From a virus, in the UHGV virus genome UHGV-0213393: 64,000 nucleotides of DNA; one strand, given 5' to 3'. Below, one piece after another: positions 7,222-53,401 of the stretch. Each line of letters opens with the position of its first letter. Within the stretch, counting starts at the first letter, position 1. The translations under genes and the position numbers were made by a program. The notes beneath the pieces were generated by a model. It searched no databases. It worked only from the letters and a program-made list of their open reading frames with translations, and was not told the DNA's origin.

Positions 7222-7971
7222 TTACTTGTCCTTTGATGTCGATTGAGACTCATATATTGTCTCTACGTCATCTATTAGTTTATTAATACCCCACAATCCA
7301 GTGTCTTTATAAAAATCGCTTTCTTCAATTGCTTTTAATAAATCGGCAAAATCTTCTTGGGTGGAAATTCTTTTCTTTTTTGCTTTATATACATCGACAA
7401 TTACTTTTATGCCGTGATACAGAGCCACTCTGGCACTCTCAGTCTCTCTCTTCTTCTCTTCAATTGCAGACAATAATTTATATTGATCTTCTGTTTGCTT
7501 TTCTAGACTTAAAAGCTTGCTCTCTTTTTGCTTCAAGTTGATCTGCAACTCTTTTATTCTTGCCCTCTCTTCTAAATCAAACTCATAGTCAATGTATCTA
7601 ATTCTTGCATAGTTCCTGCCTGTTGCTTTTGATATATACATTGTTATATAAGGCATTACCACTGACGCAGTGGTTCCATATATAAATGGCATAACAAAAT
7701 GAGCCACAAACGGAGATACAATGATGGGGCCAACATAAGGAAAGTGATATTTCTCACCAACCCATACTATAGACAATGTTGTATATATATCGTACTTTGA
7801 TTTAAATAATATAATAATATCCTGCCAGTTAACGACAAAAAAAGAAACCACAACATATGCAAACAACTTATTAAATAACTTGTCTCTTATGGCTTCTTCT
7901 ATTGTGTTCCTGACTGTGACATTTTCATCTTTATTTTCTAATGATGAATCTTTGCTCATATAAAAATTCAA
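7222..7971 (-). CDS. membrane protein with C-terminal coiled-coil domain (possible exclusion or abortive-infection factor)
   Basis: Three to four hydrophobic segments in residues about 35-115, then a charged heptad-like region; AT-rich. Confidence 0.5.
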   Translation of the reverse strand: MNFYMSKDSSLENKDENVTVRNTIEEAIRDKLFNKLFAYVVVSFFVVNWQDIIILFKSKYDIYTTLSIVWVGEKYHFPYVGPIIVSPFVAHFVMPFIYGTTASVVMPYITMYISKATGRNYARIRYIDYEFDLEERARIKELQINLKQKESKLLSLEKQTEDQYKLLSAIEEKKRETESARVALYHGIKVIVDVYKAKKKRISTQEDFADLLKAIEESDFYKDTGLWGINKLIDDVETIYESQSTSKDK

Positions 7972-8020: not shown

Positions 8021-8380
8021 TCAAACACCAACCAGGCTTTCAAGAGGAATGCCAAACTGGGAATGTAAACGACGAATCATAGGTAACGTCAAATTTCGCG
8101 TGCCATTAAGCACTTCGTAAACACGGTTTGACTTACCAATTGCCGGTTCCAGATCCTTCACTGTCAGCCCTTGCTGTTCCATACGAAACTTAATGGCTTC
8201 AATAGGTGATGGTGGCTCAATTGGGTAATGCTTTTTCTCGTACTCTTCGATGAGCAGGCACATTACTTCAAAGAAATCGCCTTCCGGTGTGTTCATTTCC
8301 GGTTCGTTATCGAACATCGGTTCGACCGCACGCAGTGCGGCCTCATAATCTTGTTCTGTACGGATAGGTTTAATGTTCAT
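8021..8380 (-). CDS. higA: HigA-family HTH antitoxin
   Basis: Downstream of a HigB-like toxin; C-terminal XRE-type HTH; resembles E. coli HigA from memory. Confidence 0.7.
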   Translation of the reverse strand: MNIKPIRTEQDYEAALRAVEPMFDNEPEMNTPEGDFFEVMCLLIEEYEKKHYPIEPPSPIEAIKFRMEQQGLTVKDLEPAIGKSNRVYEVLNGTRNLTLPMIRRLHSQFGIPLESLVGV

Positions 8381-8383
8381 GAT

Positions 8384-8686
8384 TTACTCCAGTTCTATTG
8401 TATCCGCTTCAATGGCATCGTATTCCTTATGTGTTCCAATAAACTTAACGAACATCCATCCTCGCTGATAAGCAATTGCGACAATTAACCTGTAATCATT
8501 TCCCTTAATATTAAACACCACGCGCCTGTTTTTAAGGATGCTGGCTGTCCGGTACTGTTCTTTGATCTCAGCCGGGTTTTTCCAGTCAGCCTTTGTTGCT
8601 TCATCAACCCATGCCTTTAATGGCTGTTCTGCATCGGGATTCTTCGCCCAGAAATCCCTTAGTGTTTTTACCGAAATTATTTTCAT
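8384..8686 (-). CDS. higB: HigB-family (RelE/ParE superfamily) mRNA interferase toxin
   Basis: Start at MKIISVKTL; C-terminal NIKGNDYRLIVAIAYQRGWMFVKFIGTHKEYD matches the HigB signature; toxin-first operon. Confidence 0.7.
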   Translation of the reverse strand: MKIISVKTLRDFWAKNPDAEQPLKAWVDEATKADWKNPAEIKEQYRTASILKNRRVVFNIKGNDYRLIVAIAYQRGWMFVKFIGTHKEYDAIEADTIELE

Positions 8687-8830
8687 CACAGATTCCTTCT
8701 CTCTGAAAGTATAGTAGTCCCAATATGGGACAATGTAAAGCACTTTAGTCCCATGCTGGGATATGAATTGAAATCACAATCTCCAGACAATGCCCCTCGA
8801 TACCAGATAAATCGACCTTTGAGGACGCTT

Positions 8831-13052: not shown

Positions 13053-13673
13053 ATGGTTTCCCCCTGGCTGGAACACGGCATTGATGCAGTCATTGTCGAT
13101 CCGCAACACCAGGAGTCCGGCAGCCAATTGATGGAGTCAGGTGCTGTACTCACACGTATCAGCGCAATTATTGACAGTGATGAGGTCTACAATTTCCTTC
13201 GGAAAAATTTGCACAGAGTTGTATTTTTAGCCGGTTTCCCTCCATGTACTGACCTGGCTGTATCTGGCGCACGCTGGTTCGCAGATAAAGCGAAAAAAGA
13301 TCCGGTTTTCCAGTTCAAAGCAATGCAGGTTGTCTGGCAGTGTTACGACATTGCAAAGATGATTGGTTGCCCGTACATGATTGAAAACCCGGTCAGCCAA
13401 ATATCGACATTCTGGCGTAAACCTGATCACATATTCCATCCTTATCACTTCACTGCATATTGCAAGGAAGACAATTACACCAAAAAAACATGCCTGTGGA
13501 GCGGACAAGGATTCATCATGCCAACTCCGCGAATCGACGAGTCGTTAGGTGATCCAGACAACCGAATACACAAGGCACCGCCAGGACCTGAAAGAGCGAA
13601 TTTTCGTAGCGCGACACCTTACGGTTTTGCAAGAGCTGTATTTGAAGCAAATAAGGAGGGAATCCGTGGCTGA
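13053..13673 (+). CDS. C5-cytosine methyltransferase-like protein (catalytic motifs only)
   Basis: GFPPCTDLAVSGA resembles motif IV (PC), MIENP resembles motif VI (ENV); a motif-I-like SLCDYTGN would need a GTG start at about 12993. No obvious target-recognition domain. Confidence 0.4.
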   Translation: MVSPWLEHGIDAVIVDPQHQESGSQLMESGAVLTRISAIIDSDEVYNFLRKNLHRVVFLAGFPPCTDLAVSGARWFADKAKKDPVFQFKAMQVVWQCYDIAKMIGCPYMIENPVSQISTFWRKPDHIFHPYHFTAYCKEDNYTKKTCLWSGQGFIMPTPRIDESLGDPDNRIHKAPPGPERANFRSATPYGFARAVFEANKEGIRG

Positions 13674-14583
13674 TATTGGTGCTAAATTTATTTCTTATAG
13701 CGACAATCATCGTCCTGCGGCGGAAGCCACTATCAGCCATATGCGACGTATTCGCTCGGAGGACGAATTTGATCGCCCCGTCTTTAAGTGGGTCGGCGGC
13801 AAATTTTCTGCACTGCCCATTATCTTCGAACACCTGCCCCACGGAAAACGGTTGATAGAACCTTTCGTTGGAGGTGGCGCTGTTTTCACTAATGCCGGAT
13901 TTAAAAGCAACCTGCTGAACGATATCAATAATGACCTGATTAACTTCTATCAGACATTGCAGCGTGAAGGGCATTCTCTTATCACACTGGCATATCGTTT
14001 TTTTCAGGATTACAACTCTGCTGATGCATTTTTGAATGTTCGCAATGCATTCAACAATGGTGCTTATGATTCCCTTCACCATGCAGCGGCGTTCCTGTAT
14101 CTCAATCGTCATTGTTTTAATGGCGTCACTCGCTATAACCGTAAAGGAGAGTTCAACGTCGGATATGGAAAGCAGAAATCCCCCCACTTCCCTCTCGCGG
14201 AAATGGAGGCGTTCCTGGCTGACGATATTTCAAAGTATTCGGAATTTGTGTCCGGCGATTTTGCTGGTGTAATTGAGGCTGCAGGGAATGATGATGTGAT
14301 TTTCTGCGATCCCCCCTATGAACCATTGCCCGACACTACCGGATTTACAAATTACTCAGGGCATAGCTTTAGGTTTGAAGATCAACAACGGCTGGTGTCA
14401 CTGCTGGTGGATGCCCACAGACGCGGAGCGAAAATTGTGATAACAAACAGTGGTGCGCCTAACATTCGCGAACTTTACGTTGGCAATGGCTTCAAGGTGT
14501 ATCCTATGCCATCCCGTCGCTCTGTATCCTGTAAAGCATCAACCCGAATGATAGCTAACGACATTATAGCCACGCTCAATTAA
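13666..14583 (+). CDS. dam: Dam-family N6-adenine DNA methyltransferase
   Basis: KWVGGK, EPFVGGGAV, NDINNDLINFY, CDPPY all present and co-linear with E. coli Dam; GTG start after AAGGAGGG RBS. Confidence 0.8.
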   Translation: MADIGAKFISYSDNHRPAAEATISHMRRIRSEDEFDRPVFKWVGGKFSALPIIFEHLPHGKRLIEPFVGGGAVFTNAGFKSNLLNDINNDLINFYQTLQREGHSLITLAYRFFQDYNSADAFLNVRNAFNNGAYDSLHHAAAFLYLNRHCFNGVTRYNRKGEFNVGYGKQKSPHFPLAEMEAFLADDISKYSEFVSGDFAGVIEAAGNDDVIFCDPPYEPLPDTTGFTNYSGHSFRFEDQQRLVSLLVDAHRRGAKIVITNSGAPNIRELYVGNGFKVYPMPSRRSVSCKASTRMIANDIIATLN

Positions 14584-45166: not shown

Positions 45167-45176
45167 AAGAAAGGGG

Positions 45177-45198
45177 CAGCAATGCCCCATTTTTAATC
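45177..45198 (+). terminator. rho-independent terminator GGGGCA-GCAA-TGCCCC plus T5
   Basis: Hairpin and T run read from sequence. Confidence 0.55.
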
Positions 45199-45955
45199 AG
45201 AAAATAATGTCGTCAACCTTTATATTATTGTTTATTTTACTTCTGAGAACGGCTATCTGGATCACTGCAGGTATTGTAACGCGATAAGCTGTGCCCCCAA
45301 TGTCAACTAACGTCCATGCGGCCGTTATTGCCCATCCAATTGGACCGGCTAAAAGGCTTACTATTCTAACTAAAGTAGCATTTGCTGCAATTGTTAAACC
45401 ACGACCGATCAATGCCTTTAGTATAACATTGGCTAACATAACTGTAATTTGATATGATCGGAATCCGCCACTATTAAAAATATATTGTATTGCAGCCAGC
45501 ATCGCTTCACGATTGAATGTTTTTAAGTTTACTAAGCCAAATTCTAAAGCAAGTTCTTTTATGTCTTGCTGCGACATCTTATCTAAAGCATCACTTAAAA
45601 TCTTCATAAGAAGATTTCTCTCAATCACACCCACTTCGCTTTCAGAATTAAAGTTTACTTTTAGCCTTTTACATACATCAATAAGAATTTCTTTATAGTA
45701 AACTCCTTTTCCACCACGCAACAATGTTGCAAATGTATTTCCACCATAGCATTGGATTTCGGCTGCAATTTCACGCCAGTATAAGCTATGTTGAGGTCTA
45801 AATTGCTTATATAGTGGGTTGTTTGATAATTCTTCAGTCCAGCGTTTTTTCCCATCGCTGTCATAAATCAACAGATTGACCAGATCATCTAGATCACAAT
45901 CGCTGCACTGCGATAAAAATGTTAAATCTCTATCTGCGCGATAAGCCATATCCAC
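45197..45955 (-). CDS. hypothetical protein with C-terminal hydrophobic helices
   Basis: Soluble N-terminal region then two hydrophobic segments (ITVMLANVILKALIG...LLAGPIGWAITAAWTLV); AT-rich. Confidence 0.5.
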   Translation of the reverse strand: MDMAYRADRDLTFLSQCSDCDLDDLVNLLIYDSDGKKRWTEELSNNPLYKQFRPQHSLYWREIAAEIQCYGGNTFATLLRGGKGVYYKEILIDVCKRLKVNFNSESEVGVIERNLLMKILSDALDKMSQQDIKELALEFGLVNLKTFNREAMLAAIQYIFNSGGFRSYQITVMLANVILKALIGRGLTIAANATLVRIVSLLAGPIGWAITAAWTLVDIGGTAYRVTIPAVIQIAVLRSKINNNIKVDDIIF

Positions 45956-45966
45956 ACTCCACTTGC

Positions 45967-46428
45967 TTAAATAATGTTTACACCTAACTTATTGACAATA
46001 ACCATATAAATTGTTGAGCATTTTGTTATGCTGTCTTTATATTCTTTTGTTAATATTTCCTCCAAATGCTCACCAACAAATTTCCTCATAATATTATTCA
46101 TTGTATGTAGCTTGGTATATATATTTTTCCCATCTATAAGATTATCACGCTCAACAGGTGAATAAGATACTACCCAGCCTTTTTCAATTAACACCCGTGC
46201 GGACTCTGTAGATATGTTAAGTAGGACGCATGGATCTATATCCACAACCTTACAAAACTTTAACATATTCTCTACTGAGAGAGCCGATTTACCATTTTCA
46301 ATTTTCCCCCAACCAGCACTTGTCATACCTAGCTTGTTTGCTATGTCTAATTGGGTGATTCCTTTCTCCTCGCGAAGGTCTCGAATATGAAATGCCAAAA
46401 TTGTCAAATAAGATGTTTTCATCATCAC
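45967..46428 (-). CDS. XRE-family helix-turn-helix regulator
   Basis: N-terminal HTH ITQLDIANKLGMTSAGWGKIENGKSALSVENMLKFCKVV. Confidence 0.6.
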   Translation of the reverse strand: MMMKTSYLTILAFHIRDLREEKGITQLDIANKLGMTSAGWGKIENGKSALSVENMLKFCKVVDIDPCVLLNISTESARVLIEKGWVVSYSPVERDNLIDGKNIYTKLHTMNNIMRKFVGEHLEEILTKEYKDSITKCSTIYMVIVNKLGVNII

Positions 46429-46743
46429 CCTCCGATATCTACCATGATACTAATTTTTTATTAAACTGCAAGTTTAATAAACTGGGTGTAGCACTGATTT
46501 TCTGTTAGAGATGTCGATGAGATAAATTCGGTTGATATTTATCCTGTAAAAATGGGGGAGGGGGGGAAGGGCTTAACCTCATGATGTTCGAAGACAAAAC
46601 AGAACAAAGTGATTTCAGGCTGAAAACCTGACCTGGCTGCTGGACACCCCGGATAACCTCCGGGGGATTCGGTATTTCTTCTTTGAATAGAGCGTTTTTA
46701 ACAAATACCCCGTAAATCCTCGCCCAGCCAGGGCGGGGAGCAG

Positions 46744-47175
46744 TCACCGCATTGGTGTGACAGATACGGCGATATTTTTATTCAGTTGATGCAGTGCCAG
46801 CTCGACAGTTTCAACTTTTGATGAATGTTCGACGTCGAGAAGCCGATCAATCTGTGTTCCATTTTTTCCGAGTTTGCGCGCCAACTCTGCTTTGCGTGTG
46901 CCGGTTTCTATCATCGCGTTGTGGAGTGCAGCCTTCATTGCTGGTAGCACTGGCAAAGAGACAACGTACTCACCTTCTTTTGGCTCGCTACCAGTGGGCA
47001 CAGGTCGGCGTTCTTCAATCTCAATCGCAACCGCTGCGACCAATCCATAACCAGCCTCAAGCAACGCTTCTTCAACTGATTCACCCACGGAATTAAACAA
47101 TGGTAGGTCGCGGCATGATACGACATACGCGCCGGTTCTGTCGTCGCGCTCCAGCTTTACCGGAAAGTTAAACAT
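46744..47175 (-). CDS. hicB: HicB-family antitoxin
   Basis: MFNFPVKLERDDRTGAYVVSCRDLP N-terminus and C-terminal HTH (KAELARKLGKNGTQIDRLL) resemble E. coli HicB. Confidence 0.75.
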   Translation of the reverse strand: MFNFPVKLERDDRTGAYVVSCRDLPLFNSVGESVEEALLEAGYGLVAAVAIEIEERRPVPTGSEPKEGEYVVSLPVLPAMKAALHNAMIETGTRKAELARKLGKNGTQIDRLLDVEHSSKVETVELALHQLNKNIAVSVTPMR

Positions 47176-47254: not shown

Positions 47255-48660
47255 TTCCTTTGAACCGTGGCCCGGGAAAAACGACCGCTTTCCGTTCAGG
47301 TTCGCTTTCTGATGACTGCCGCCACCAGGCGCTTTCGTGACTGCTCCCCGCCCTGTCGGGCAAGGCTTCCCACTTCTCAGGCCGCAACCGTCTGTTCGAC
47401 GGATTTACGCTGGCCTCCATGGACAGAAACGACGAGTCCCGCCGCCTTTAGTTCCAGTATTCCTTTTTGCCGGATGTTGAGTGCCGCATTGATATCGCGG
47501 TCATGTTCTCCTCCACATTCAGGGCATCGCCAGATGCGTTTATGAAGTGGCATTTCCGGCGTTTTGTAACCACAACAATGGCACGTTTTCGAACTGGCAA
47601 ACCACTGGTCGAGTTTTACCAGGTGAACGCCTTTTGTCGCTGCCTTGTACTCCAGCTTTGTGATGAAGCTGTGCCAGCCAGCATCACCTATCGCTCTTGC
47701 CAGATTGTGGTTTTTCATCATGTTGGCTGTTTTCAGCGTCTCCACAATTACCGCTTGGTTTTCGTCGACAATCGCGCGAGAGAGCTTGTGTTGAAAATCA
47801 GCACGGGCATTCGCCACCCGTTCGTGTAAGGCCGCAAGACGGATTCTGGCCTTTTTACGATTCGCGCTTCCCTTTTGCTTACGGGATAATGCTTTTTGTT
47901 TGCGTCGCAGATTACGACCTGCATTGATGAGATGGCGAGGATTCGGAACTTTTACAGCATCAGAAGTGATGGCATAGTGCTCCAGCCCCATATCCAGACC
48001 TGTAATCTTTTCTTCCTTCAGGTACGTGGGTTTCTCTGGTGCGGAAGCGCCATCGTCACGAAGAATGGAAGCGTAGTATTTCCCCGTTGCAGAACGGGTG
48101 ACAGTGATGCTTTTCAGCTTTCCATGAAGTTCACGATGAAGGCGTGCTTCTATCGGGGCCAGTTTGGGGATTTTGATGGCATTATCCAGCACCTTAATCC
48201 CGACACAGTGATAGCTCGATTGTTTTCCGTGTTTGCGTTTAAACGTCGGGAACCGCGCTTTCAGCTTCGGATTAAAAAAGTTGGAAAATGCCACATCAAG
48301 ATTGATTACCGCCTGTTGCAATGCCATTGAATCAAATTCTTTGAGCCAGGCATACTTACGGGACTTCTTCGCTACAGACAGCAACGGCTTCAAATCTTTG
48401 CGCGGATTTAAATTCACCCCATATCGCCGGTAAGCGTGTTTTTTGATGTGAAGAGCTTTATTGTACGCAAAGCGTACCGCGCCGAACTGGGCATTGAGAT
48501 ACTTTGCCTGTTCCGGTGTTGGATAGATGCGTACTTTTGTTGCTCTTAACATAGTCACTGCTCATTGGTACAGGTTTTTATGCTAACACCGTAATAATAT
48601 TTTTAAAGCCCTGTGGGCTTTTCCGCCTTTCCTCCCCGCCCGCATTGGGCGAGGGTTCTC
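47255..48660 (-). mobile_element. IS200/IS605-family element carrying tnpB only (IS1341-like); boundaries approximate
   Basis: TnpB ORF flanked by subterminal regions sharing CTCCCCGCCC (about 47343 and 48632) and hairpins; no tnpA. Confidence 0.55.
47377..48558 (-). CDS. tnpB: TnpB (OrfB) RNA-guided endonuclease-type transposon protein
   Basis: 393 aa with C-terminal zinc finger CHCCGYK...CPECGGEHDRDINAALNI and typical basic N-terminus. Confidence 0.8.
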   Translation of the reverse strand: MTMLRATKVRIYPTPEQAKYLNAQFGAVRFAYNKALHIKKHAYRRYGVNLNPRKDLKPLLSVAKKSRKYAWLKEFDSMALQQAVINLDVAFSNFFNPKLKARFPTFKRKHGKQSSYHCVGIKVLDNAIKIPKLAPIEARLHRELHGKLKSITVTRSATGKYYASILRDDGASAPEKPTYLKEEKITGLDMGLEHYAITSDAVKVPNPRHLINAGRNLRRKQKALSRKQKGSANRKKARIRLAALHERVANARADFQHKLSRAIVDENQAVIVETLKTANMMKNHNLARAIGDAGWHSFITKLEYKAATKGVHLVKLDQWFASSKTCHCCGYKTPEMPLHKRIWRCPECGGEHDRDINAALNIRQKGILELKAAGLVVSVHGGQRKSVEQTVAA

Positions 48661-48917
48661 GGCGGTTGTTTGCTGAATACTTCACAAGTTTCCTTATGCG
48701 ATTTATCCATCGTGGGCGATAAGAATGGCAACACAAAAGATATAAAACACAACAAAAATGTTTATAAATATAACTTTTGTGTTTGGTGGTTGCGTTTTTG
48801 GAAAAGCATTTCTGCATATGAAAAAACATCAGCATATGGTGAAAACAACGAAAAATTACTGATGAAATCACACACTGGATAAGCTGCCACGAAATCGGAA
48901 ACCTTTTGCGGTGAATC

Positions 48918-52762: not shown

Positions 52763-53401
52763 TGTTGCGATTGACTGTACAATAACCGTGCGGCGGGAAT
52801 TTCATCGCTCGAAAATGTATGTTAGAAAATTAAATTGATGTTTCTAATCAAGAATGTATGATTTACATCGTCACAAAAAAACAGCATCTGATAAAAATTC
52901 TGTTGATCTTTCTAATGTTCAGGCTTATATTCATGCCGTCGTAGCAAATTCTGCGACCAGGTTTGACAGCCTGAATGTTAGTGCGGACAACCGCAGATTT
53001 CCGATATTGCGGTATTTTTGTGTCCGTAAACCGCGTTACGCCCGAATTATGGTGGGGCGTGATGGGGAGGCTTCGGCCTGCTGGTTTCACTAACGCCAGT
53101 CTGTCAACCCTGTCACGTCCTGCCACCTGTTTGACAGCGGGTAGCAGGTTGTTAAACCTGTTAGTGAGGCCGTAACTATGGTTAATGCCAATCCTTGCTC
53201 ACGTCCAGAATTCATCTGGCGTTTCCACTCCCTGCAAAAACACTGCGATCACTTCGCAATTGCCGCAACCGAAAAAGAAGCCCGTTCTCTGATCCCTGAT
53301 CAATATGGTGTTCTTACTGGTCGTTTCTCTACTTCCCCACAACCAAACACTAATCCCTGGTATCGCAATATTACCAATCCCGGCATTGCGGAGGCTCACT
53401 G

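Follow-up and report, generated by a model that had tools for sequence, protein, structure and literature searches.

Two neighbouring genes in the virus genome UHGV-0213393 very probably constitute a Juk-family defence cassette against jumbo phages. The cassette, xre-jukA, is of the 'JukA-alone' type and travels as cargo of a P1-family phage-plasmid; we studied it within a window of 64,000 nucleotides, by which we mean the whole stretch of DNA analysed here. It is already known: a one-residue variant of this operon, Jo6, was previously synthesised and assayed by Li et al. (bioRxiv 10.1101/2022.09.17.508391). The module consists of the following elements.

45967–46422, minus strand: XRE-family helix-turn-helix (HTH) gene, encoding an N-terminal HTH_3 domain and a conserved, helical C-terminal domain of about 75 amino acids (aa); 151 aa from ATG 46422
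45950–45966, minus strand: intergenic spacer of 17 nt, in which a GGAG ribosome-binding site of jukA can be read from the sequence
45197–45949, minus strand: jukA, encoding a 250-aa protein of the JukA/YaaW family; stop codon at 45197–45199

A preliminary description of this DNA, made from its letters, had placed two minus-strand genes in a sharply AT-rich stretch, and this was borne out. ORF calling in the window yields both open reading frames (ORFs), at 45197–45955 and 45967–46428, co-directional on the minus strand. The GC content of the cassette (45193–46556) is 0.358, against 0.469 for the window and 0.47 and 0.50 for the flanks, and lies below that of every same-sized stretch sampled from the 64 kb. 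The GTG starts first adopted (45955 and 46428) are probably 6 nt too far upstream, since alignments of homologues open at MAYR... for JukA and at MKTS... for the HTH protein. RefSeq starts jukA at ATG 45949 (250 aa) and the HTH gene at ATG 46425 (152 aa); for the latter we prefer ATG 46422 (151 aa), because homologues begin with MKTS, the synthetic Jo6 fragment begins there and a GGAGG lies 6 nt upstream. An 80-aa ORF at 46505–46747 and other nested ORFs were discarded as spurious: they match no family and overlap either a ddrB remnant or the region upstream of the operon.

The downstream gene had been described as encoding a 252-aa protein to which no family could be assigned. This proved wrong. 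Pfam recognises DUF3944 at residues 5–39 and Ubiq_cyt_C_chap at residues 58–229 of the 250-aa protein (45.4 and 46.9 bits, both above the gathering thresholds), a layout that corresponds to the YaaW/UPF0174 architecture and is shared by all 120 of the 120 homologues among those listed. The PADLOC profile for JukA, PDLC04113, matches with an E-value of 6.8e-72 over positions 1–241 of 245, a second profile, PDLC04111, with 2.6e-65, and phrog_13238 across 250 of 250 positions. A search of the PDB by sequence gave no significant match, and neither did a Foldseek comparison of the AlphaFold2 (AF2) model with the PDB; its top entries, BAX and the diphtheria toxin T domain, were set aside as noise (E > 0.6, template-modelling (TM) score < 0.2).

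Comparison with database proteins leads directly to the tested operon. JukA of the window is identical to WP_016262341.1, and both it and the HTH protein are 100% identical to those of the E. marmotae plasmid NZ_CP099353.1. The E. coli plasmid NZ_CP173545.1, which shares 99.7% DNA identity with the window, carries WP_121372120.1 as its annotated DUF3944 protein; a single residue (N31S; 249 of 250 identical) separates this from JukA of the window, and the HTH protein also differs from its counterpart on that plasmid by one residue (K to E, at about residue 122). Supplementary Table 4 of Li et al. lists 17 synthesised jukA operons, and its row 13, 'Jo6', is WP_121372120.1, with the entries jukA;HTH-XRE, Immunity Yes and Escherichia. 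Read from 46422 downward, the window agrees with 368 of the 369 nt printed for the Jo6 gBlock. The two operons are thus alike in the kind and order of their genes and one residue apart in each protein; they differ in that for Jo6 the coding sequences were tested in P. aeruginosa, driven by a heterologous promoter.

The phenotype of this operon is described in passages of the preprint and its supplement. There, each of the two jukA genes, from Escherichia and from Janthinobacterium, has an Xre-family regulator as its partner, and P. aeruginosa PAO1 carrying either operon is immune specifically to PhiKZ-related jumbo phages. Single-gene deletions in both operons showed JukA alone to be sufficient and the HTH gene to be dispensable. 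Escherichia JukA tagged with sfCherry2 is diffuse in uninfected cells and, once infection has occurred, is rapidly concentrated at the infection site. Jo6 JukA arrests infection early without degradation of phage DNA and protects the cell, and the preprint terms Juk immunity non-abortive. The preprint has since been published (Cell 188:2127, 2025) and summarised in two 2026 reviews (PMC13282480, PMC13434031), which report in their passages on the Cell paper that JukB forms tetrameric pores permeabilising the vesicle, and that about 21% of Gram-negative genomes contain JukA and about 1% JukB. The available passages of the preprint and supplement mention neither a native promoter or operator nor a phage-plasmid context for Jo6, and the part of the preprint's neighbourhood table available to us does not contain the accession of the plasmid related to our window. 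The preliminary description was partly right: the islet is acquired, AT-rich and made of two genes, the non-enzymatic, effector-like protein is encoded beside an XRE-type HTH gene, and the whole is an anti-phage module.

The functional core of the family is recognisable in the window protein. The motif GGN-T..R-G.G..Y.E...DV is common to it and to five validated JukAs, and its positions are invariant in 41 homologues. Function of the P. aeruginosa PA14 JukA is abolished by mutating N66/S67, R73/K74, Y79 or E104, or by deleting residues 161–214, according to the preprint; residues N71, R78, Y85 and E110 of the window protein are invariant and may correspond to the PA14 mutant residues, a correspondence drawn from their spacing. 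JukA of the PA14 JukAB system belongs to the same family, the core motif being common to other validated JukAs, and Jo6 JukA likewise relocalises to the infection site and is specific for PhiKZ-like phages in the preprint's account. The two systems differ in that JukB is absent from our operon and from the scanned window, and in that JukA acting alone arrests infection without degrading phage DNA, so that the effector step differs.

The operon comprises two genes only and then reaches a terminator. A PADLOC scan of the whole window took in all 67 non-nested ORFs with a length of 110 aa or more; among the top 25 of the 63 families matched, JukA is the sole Juk component and JukB does not appear. 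Nor was JukB found in 62 ORFs scanned singly, among them all neighbours from 41.8 to 63.8 kb; the other five, short ORFs, were scanned in the whole-window set alone. The locus fails the two-gene JukAB definition, yet it is a bona fide JukA module.

The upstream gene had been proposed to encode an XRE-family regulator, and Pfam HTH_3 indeed matches residues 15–67 of its product (1e-09; 38.7 bits against a 23-bit cut-off). The C-terminal 75 or so residues have no Pfam match; the C-terminal half carries a motif, GW.VSYSPVE.DNLIDGK, that is strongly conserved in two alignments of homologues. The 18 homologues retrieved are all 141–153 aa long, and those named belong to the Enterobacterales. In the AF2 model (predicted local distance difference test score, pLDDT, 83.6), the HTH domain superposes on C.BclI, C.Esp1396I and C.AhdI, controller proteins of restriction-modification (RM) systems, over about 68 residues (TM about 0.8, root-mean-square deviation 1.1–1.5 Å, Foldseek probability 1.00), and the full-length protein loosely resembles the two-domain repressors DdrO and Stl. 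Furthermore, PADLOC 'Control_protein' models match it.

Synteny of the HTH gene and jukA is observed in five of the five contexts examined, the HTH gene being always upstream of a gene for a DUF3944 protein of 250–254 aa, with 11–16 nt between the two in homologous loci:

Context 1: the window
Context 2: a second P1-like lineage of E. coli, JukA 72% identical, between ant and a gene for a 2,255-aa DarB-like protein
Context 3: a Klebsiella chromosomal island adjoining lysS, with a resolvase
Context 4: a Pectobacterium integrase island
Context 5: Serratia, an islet of these two genes alone, with LacI- and LysR-type genes on either side

Two elements were recognised upstream of the operon, the first by eye and by conservation and the second by a repeat search.

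46444–46471, minus strand: putative sigma-70 promoter, with -35 TTGCAG (46471–46466), a 16-nt spacer and -10 TATCAT (46449–46444)
46457–46481: candidate operator, a perfect palindrome of 11+11 nt, TTTATTAAACT-gca-AGTTTAATAAA, centred on the -35 hexamer

We infer a promoter because both hexamers are invariant in five loci of four genera, where the flanking DNA cannot be aligned. The block AAACTTGCAGTTT...AGTATCAT does not vary in these loci. The palindrome core AAACTTGCAGTTT is itself kept in five of five loci, and the arms vary symmetrically, TTAAACT/AGTTTAA in some and TGAAACT/AGTTTCA in others. The window holds a single exact copy of the palindrome. A conserved palindrome lying over the -35 hexamer likely marks an operator.

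From the constant HTH-JukA synteny, the conserved palindrome and -10, the RM-controller-like fold and the 'Control_protein' matches, we lean towards the view that the HTH protein is a C-protein-like autoregulator, a dimer of which would sit on the palindrome over its own -35 hexamer and thereby set operon expression. This agrees with the HTH gene being dispensable when a heterologous promoter drives the operon. Besides the HTH fold, the likeness to C.BclI, C.Esp1396I and C.AhdI includes the gene's first place in its operon and a palindrome over its own promoter. The window protein differs from them by its extra conserved helical domain of about 75 residues, and it would control a Juk gene rather than a restriction enzyme.

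The strict synteny, with its short intergenic gap, may also be read otherwise: in the native host the HTH protein could work together with JukA, as its partner or effector, for instance by being recruited by it to shut down early phage transcription, and over-expression in PAO1 would then have made it seem dispensable. Each of the 18 retrieved homologues with an examined context adjoins a JukA gene, the half of the protein outside the HTH domain carries the highly conserved motif given above, and one of the two reviews names 'transcriptional regulators' among JukA-associated effectors. We nevertheless consider this quite unlikely. Deletion of the partner gene left immunity intact in both the Escherichia and the Janthinobacterium operons of the preprint, the conserved palindrome over the protein's own promoter is what an autoregulator would predict, and the closest structural relatives of the HTH domain are RM controller proteins.

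The C-terminus of JukA had been described as forming membrane helices. Residues 163–235, approximately, are indeed hydrophobic (Kyte-Doolittle maximum over 19 aa of 1.64, at residues 193–211, against the classic threshold of 1.6), and AF2 predicts four helices in this block, at low confidence (pLDDT < 50 at residues 177–218; residues 1–160 are modelled with moderate to high confidence). The membrane helices are thus borne out only in part: the hydrophobicity is borderline, and an integral-membrane location finds no support in the diffuse distribution reported for the tagged Escherichia protein. The block, GGF.SY...AN...GRGL...GPIGW...AGP.YRVTIPSV, is kept almost motif for motif in 41 homologues and in relatives from Pseudomonadales and Bacteroidales, and its conservation extends to charged residues and to Gly and Pro, unlike that of generic membrane anchors. 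The JukA and Pfam profiles run through it. For the JukB-dependent JukA of Rhodospirillum, Jo23, the protein search came back empty and a genome scan returned only relatives at 34–46% identity without an identifiable JukB; these relatives still show the hydrophobic block conserved across phyla. In view of this conservation, of the extent of the profiles and of the inactivating 161–214 deletion in PA14, the hydrophobic C-terminus appears to be a family-wide functional domain and not a peculiarity of the window protein. The reported diffuse localisation of tagged JukA argues that it is not a constitutive membrane anchor. Whether the helical block would instead engage the vesicle membrane or a partner we suggest only tentatively, with the balance slightly against it.

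A hydrophobic C-terminus next to an HTH gene also recalls the layout of many toxin-antitoxin and abortive-infection modules, and it had been suggested that the pair is of this kind. On such a reading the C-terminus of the 250-aa protein would damage the host membrane, and the HTH protein would repress or neutralise it. The HTH domain does show weak, sub-threshold similarity to the HipB, HigA and PezA antitoxin models. These scores lie far below the cut-offs and reflect the generic HTH fold; neither protein matches a toxin family in Pfam or PADLOC. A toxin held in check by its regulator is further disfavoured because JukA without the HTH gene still protected PAO1 cultures, with an immunity that the preprint describes as non-abortive, and tagged JukA was diffuse before infection rather than membrane-bound. 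The suggestion is therefore unsupported, and we regard it as highly improbable.

That jukA is merely a housekeeping YaaW/Cbp3-like chaperone gene hitch-hiking on the plasmid with no role in defence, as its Ubiq_cyt_C_chap match and the chromosomal YaaW-type homologue of E. coli might suggest, deserves almost no credence, for the chromosomal protein is only about 30% identical, the window protein scores 116 bits against the 395-bit equivalog cut-off of the NCBIfam PRK10236 (YaaW-type) model, the AT-rich cassette is mobile and occurs both in islands and on phage-plasmids, and the preprint reports a direct immunity phenotype for the near-identical Jo6. A housekeeping homologue, which the preliminary description named as contrary evidence, is thus in spirit not what these figures show. 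E. coli YaaW (UPF0174; PRK10236) resembles JukA of the window in domain architecture, length class and full-length homology; it differs, beyond its low identity, in being chromosomal rather than cassette-borne and in not being seen with this HTH partner. As a separate observation, NCBIfam NF007593 (PRK10236, YaaW-type) is labelled 'acidic protein MsyB' in the NCBIfam release used, and several records call chromosomal yaaW homologues 'msyB'; a naming error seems to be propagating here.

The position of the islet between the darA block and the hicB/insertion sequence (IS) region, as first described, was confirmed with exact breakpoints by BLAST against a P1-type relative that lacks Juk, NZ_CP104667.1 (L002). 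The features at the borders are as follows.

45193–46556: acquired cassette of 1,364 bp, delimited against NZ_CP104667.1
46557–46631, plus strand: 3' remnant of ddrB, 75 nt, recognised from the resumed homology to ddrB of NZ_CP104667.1
45173–45188, both strands: bidirectional intrinsic terminator hairpin GGGGCA-ttgc-TGCCCC, with T-runs on both strands
45185–45195 (CCCCATTTTTA) and 46547–46557 (TAAAAATGGGG): perfect inverted repeat of 11 nt on the cassette borders, found by a repeat search

Homology to NZ_CP104667.1 stops at 45192 and resumes at 46557, which corresponds to L002 position 5670. In that relative the interval holds ddrB (L002 4359–5744; 461 aa; ddrB-ParB PF18763, E 2.5e-40). Searching the window with tblastn revealed no ddrB elsewhere in it. 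NZ_CP173545.1, a close relative, has the cassette and, in addition, a relocated copy of ddrB, lying between the IS and the portal gene (L001 11893–13278). These alignments show the cassette in the place of ddrB, the last gene of the dar antirestriction operon, which it replaced on entry. The upstream genes match the LydB, Hdf, DarA and DdrA families in PHROGs, in agreement with the P1 dar operon (lydB-hdf-darA-ddrA-ddrB), and relatives hold ddrB in the slot; our element differs from P1 in that ddrB is replaced by the cassette, with 75 nt left, and the cassette is unrelated to Dar functions.

A strong terminator had been placed at 45177–45198. The hairpin is real; it lies slightly to one side, at 45173–45188, and its stem is a modest 6 bp, with folding energies of -11.4 kcal/mol (minus strand) and -14.0 kcal/mol (plus strand) and z-scores of -2.5 and -3.8. 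It serves both jukA on the minus strand and the convergent dar operon on the plus strand. Being present in the Juk-less NZ_CP104667.1, it belongs to the backbone and not to the cassette. The inverted repeat straddles the same boundary: its CCCC and GGGG parts are backbone, from the terminator hairpin and the ddrB remnant respectively, while the ATTTTTA and TAAAAAT parts form the cassette termini. By chance, a stretch of 1.6 kb would hold about 0.3 such repeats, and their coincidence with both breakpoints would be far rarer still; the repeat could represent recombination microhomology or the ends of the cassette.

The backbone is that of a P1-family phage-plasmid of about 94 kb. Its genes encode a Sit-like transglycosylase, baseplate proteins, tail fibres with a Cin-type recombinase, portal, RepL, Icd/Rha, a DarB-like giant protein, RepB and ParM. 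Two further features of the window help to define it.

52925–52977 and 53045–53130, plus strand: C4 antisense RNA of P1 immI and its a1/b1 target (Rfam RF01695, 68.8 bits; RF03163, 54.4 bits)
47350–48672: IS200/IS605-type element with TnpB only (TnpB ORF 47377–48558, minus strand), beside hicA/hicB

The C4 RNA lies upstream of icd/ant-like genes, which confirms a P1-type immunity region. The TnpB element is absent from NZ_CP104667.1 and 92.7% identical to a copy in NZ_CP173545.1; it is a second insertion, independent of the Juk cassette. PADLOC matches to 'Csx1' and Cas12f/Cas12u in the window were rejected, as they correspond to the IS-borne TnpB.

The module is sparsely distributed. By nucleotide match, xre-jukA occurs in 16 of 5,426 complete E. 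coli genomes: five near-identical copies on plasmids of about 94 kb, eight at about 71% identity on plasmids of 96–105 kb, and three chromosomal copies. JukA homologues are found in 28 of 72,556 PLSDB plasmids. Megablast of the locus against a phage collection gave no match, and tblastn of JukA against phages two weak matches only, which indicates that deposited phage genomes hold no close relatives and that the close relatives are filed as plasmids. The module in the second P1-like lineage (96–105 kb), 72% identical to ours, is represented by L003 3530–4753 on E. coli contig DAEFVV010000051.1, between an ANT-domain gene and the gene for the 2,255-aa DarB-like protein. The existence of two sites in P1-like lineages suggests independent acquisitions of one cassette type by P1-family elements.

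More distantly, in a metagenome-assembled genome (MAG) of Pseudomonadales, two JukA paralogues with C-terminal zinc-ribbon extensions (L017 2974–3768 and 5238–6179) flank a 433-aa HTH-containing gene. The preprint mentions, in a passage on JukA classes, a 'Zn-finger fused to JukA' class, and the layout of the MAG is consistent with it.

Other candidate defence or modification genes lie elsewhere in the window. A 118-aa homologue of PD-Lambda-2_A at 8384–8740 (minus strand) matches the full profile with an E-value of 1.8e-41, and the adjoining 118-aa ORF at 8021–8377 (minus strand) matches PD-Lambda-2_B over no more than its first 119 positions out of 402 (E 1.9e-42). This pair (8021–8740) suggests a second defence system that has been truncated or frameshifted; the neighbouring ORF at 7222–7968 has no PADLOC match. 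An orphan Dam-like type II DNA methyltransferase gene is found at 13549–14580 (plus strand; PADLOC oMTase, E 1.4e-78), unannotated in the PLSDB gene table.

Several points weigh against the assignment. The functional data in the preprint are all heterologous, obtained in P. aeruginosa PAO1 against Pseudomonas phages and not in Escherichia or against its phages, and the preprint allows for a host factor that is recruited in trans by JukA. The alleles of the window each stand one residue away from those tested (N31S in JukA; K to E in the HTH protein). JukA has no structural homologue, and its AF2 model is unreliable at residues 177–218. On the side of expression, a consensus promoter scan missed the xre-jukA promoter, whose -35 hexamer is weak (three of six consensus positions).

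A sequence of events can be proposed on this basis. JukA would be diffuse in the uninfected cell, at a level set by the HTH dimer on its palindrome. Upon infection by a PhiKZ-like, nucleus-forming phage it would concentrate at the infection site, where its hydrophobic C-terminal block may meet the vesicle membrane or a partner; infection would then stop early, with phage DNA not degraded, and the cell would survive. That the phage-plasmid, in its natural setting, uses the cassette to shield its lysogen against chimalliviruses of Escherichia (Goslar-like phages, for example) is to our mind an evenly balanced proposition. A fuller reading, which we think unlikely, is that a self-contained JukA senses ejected or early jumbo-phage proteins, that its C-terminal helices engage the membrane of the early-phage-infection vesicle so that JukB is unneeded, and that the HTH partner times or limits JukA in a new cell in the manner of an RM controller. 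The whole would then form a temperate-phage exclusion system against Escherichia chimalliviruses, acquired at the cost of ddrB.

The family, its pairing with XRE-type regulators and the phenotype of the operon have already been published, and carry little weight here as discovery. What our analysis adds is the natural setting of the tested Jo6 cassette, a P1-family phage-plasmid in which it displaced ddrB, together with its likely native promoter and operator, both bypassed in the heterologous experiments. Standard two-gene 'Juk' rules, which call for JukA and JukB, would miss this functional variant, in which JukA acts alone. The mechanism of JukA-alone immunity is best sought in the conserved hydrophobic C-terminal block.

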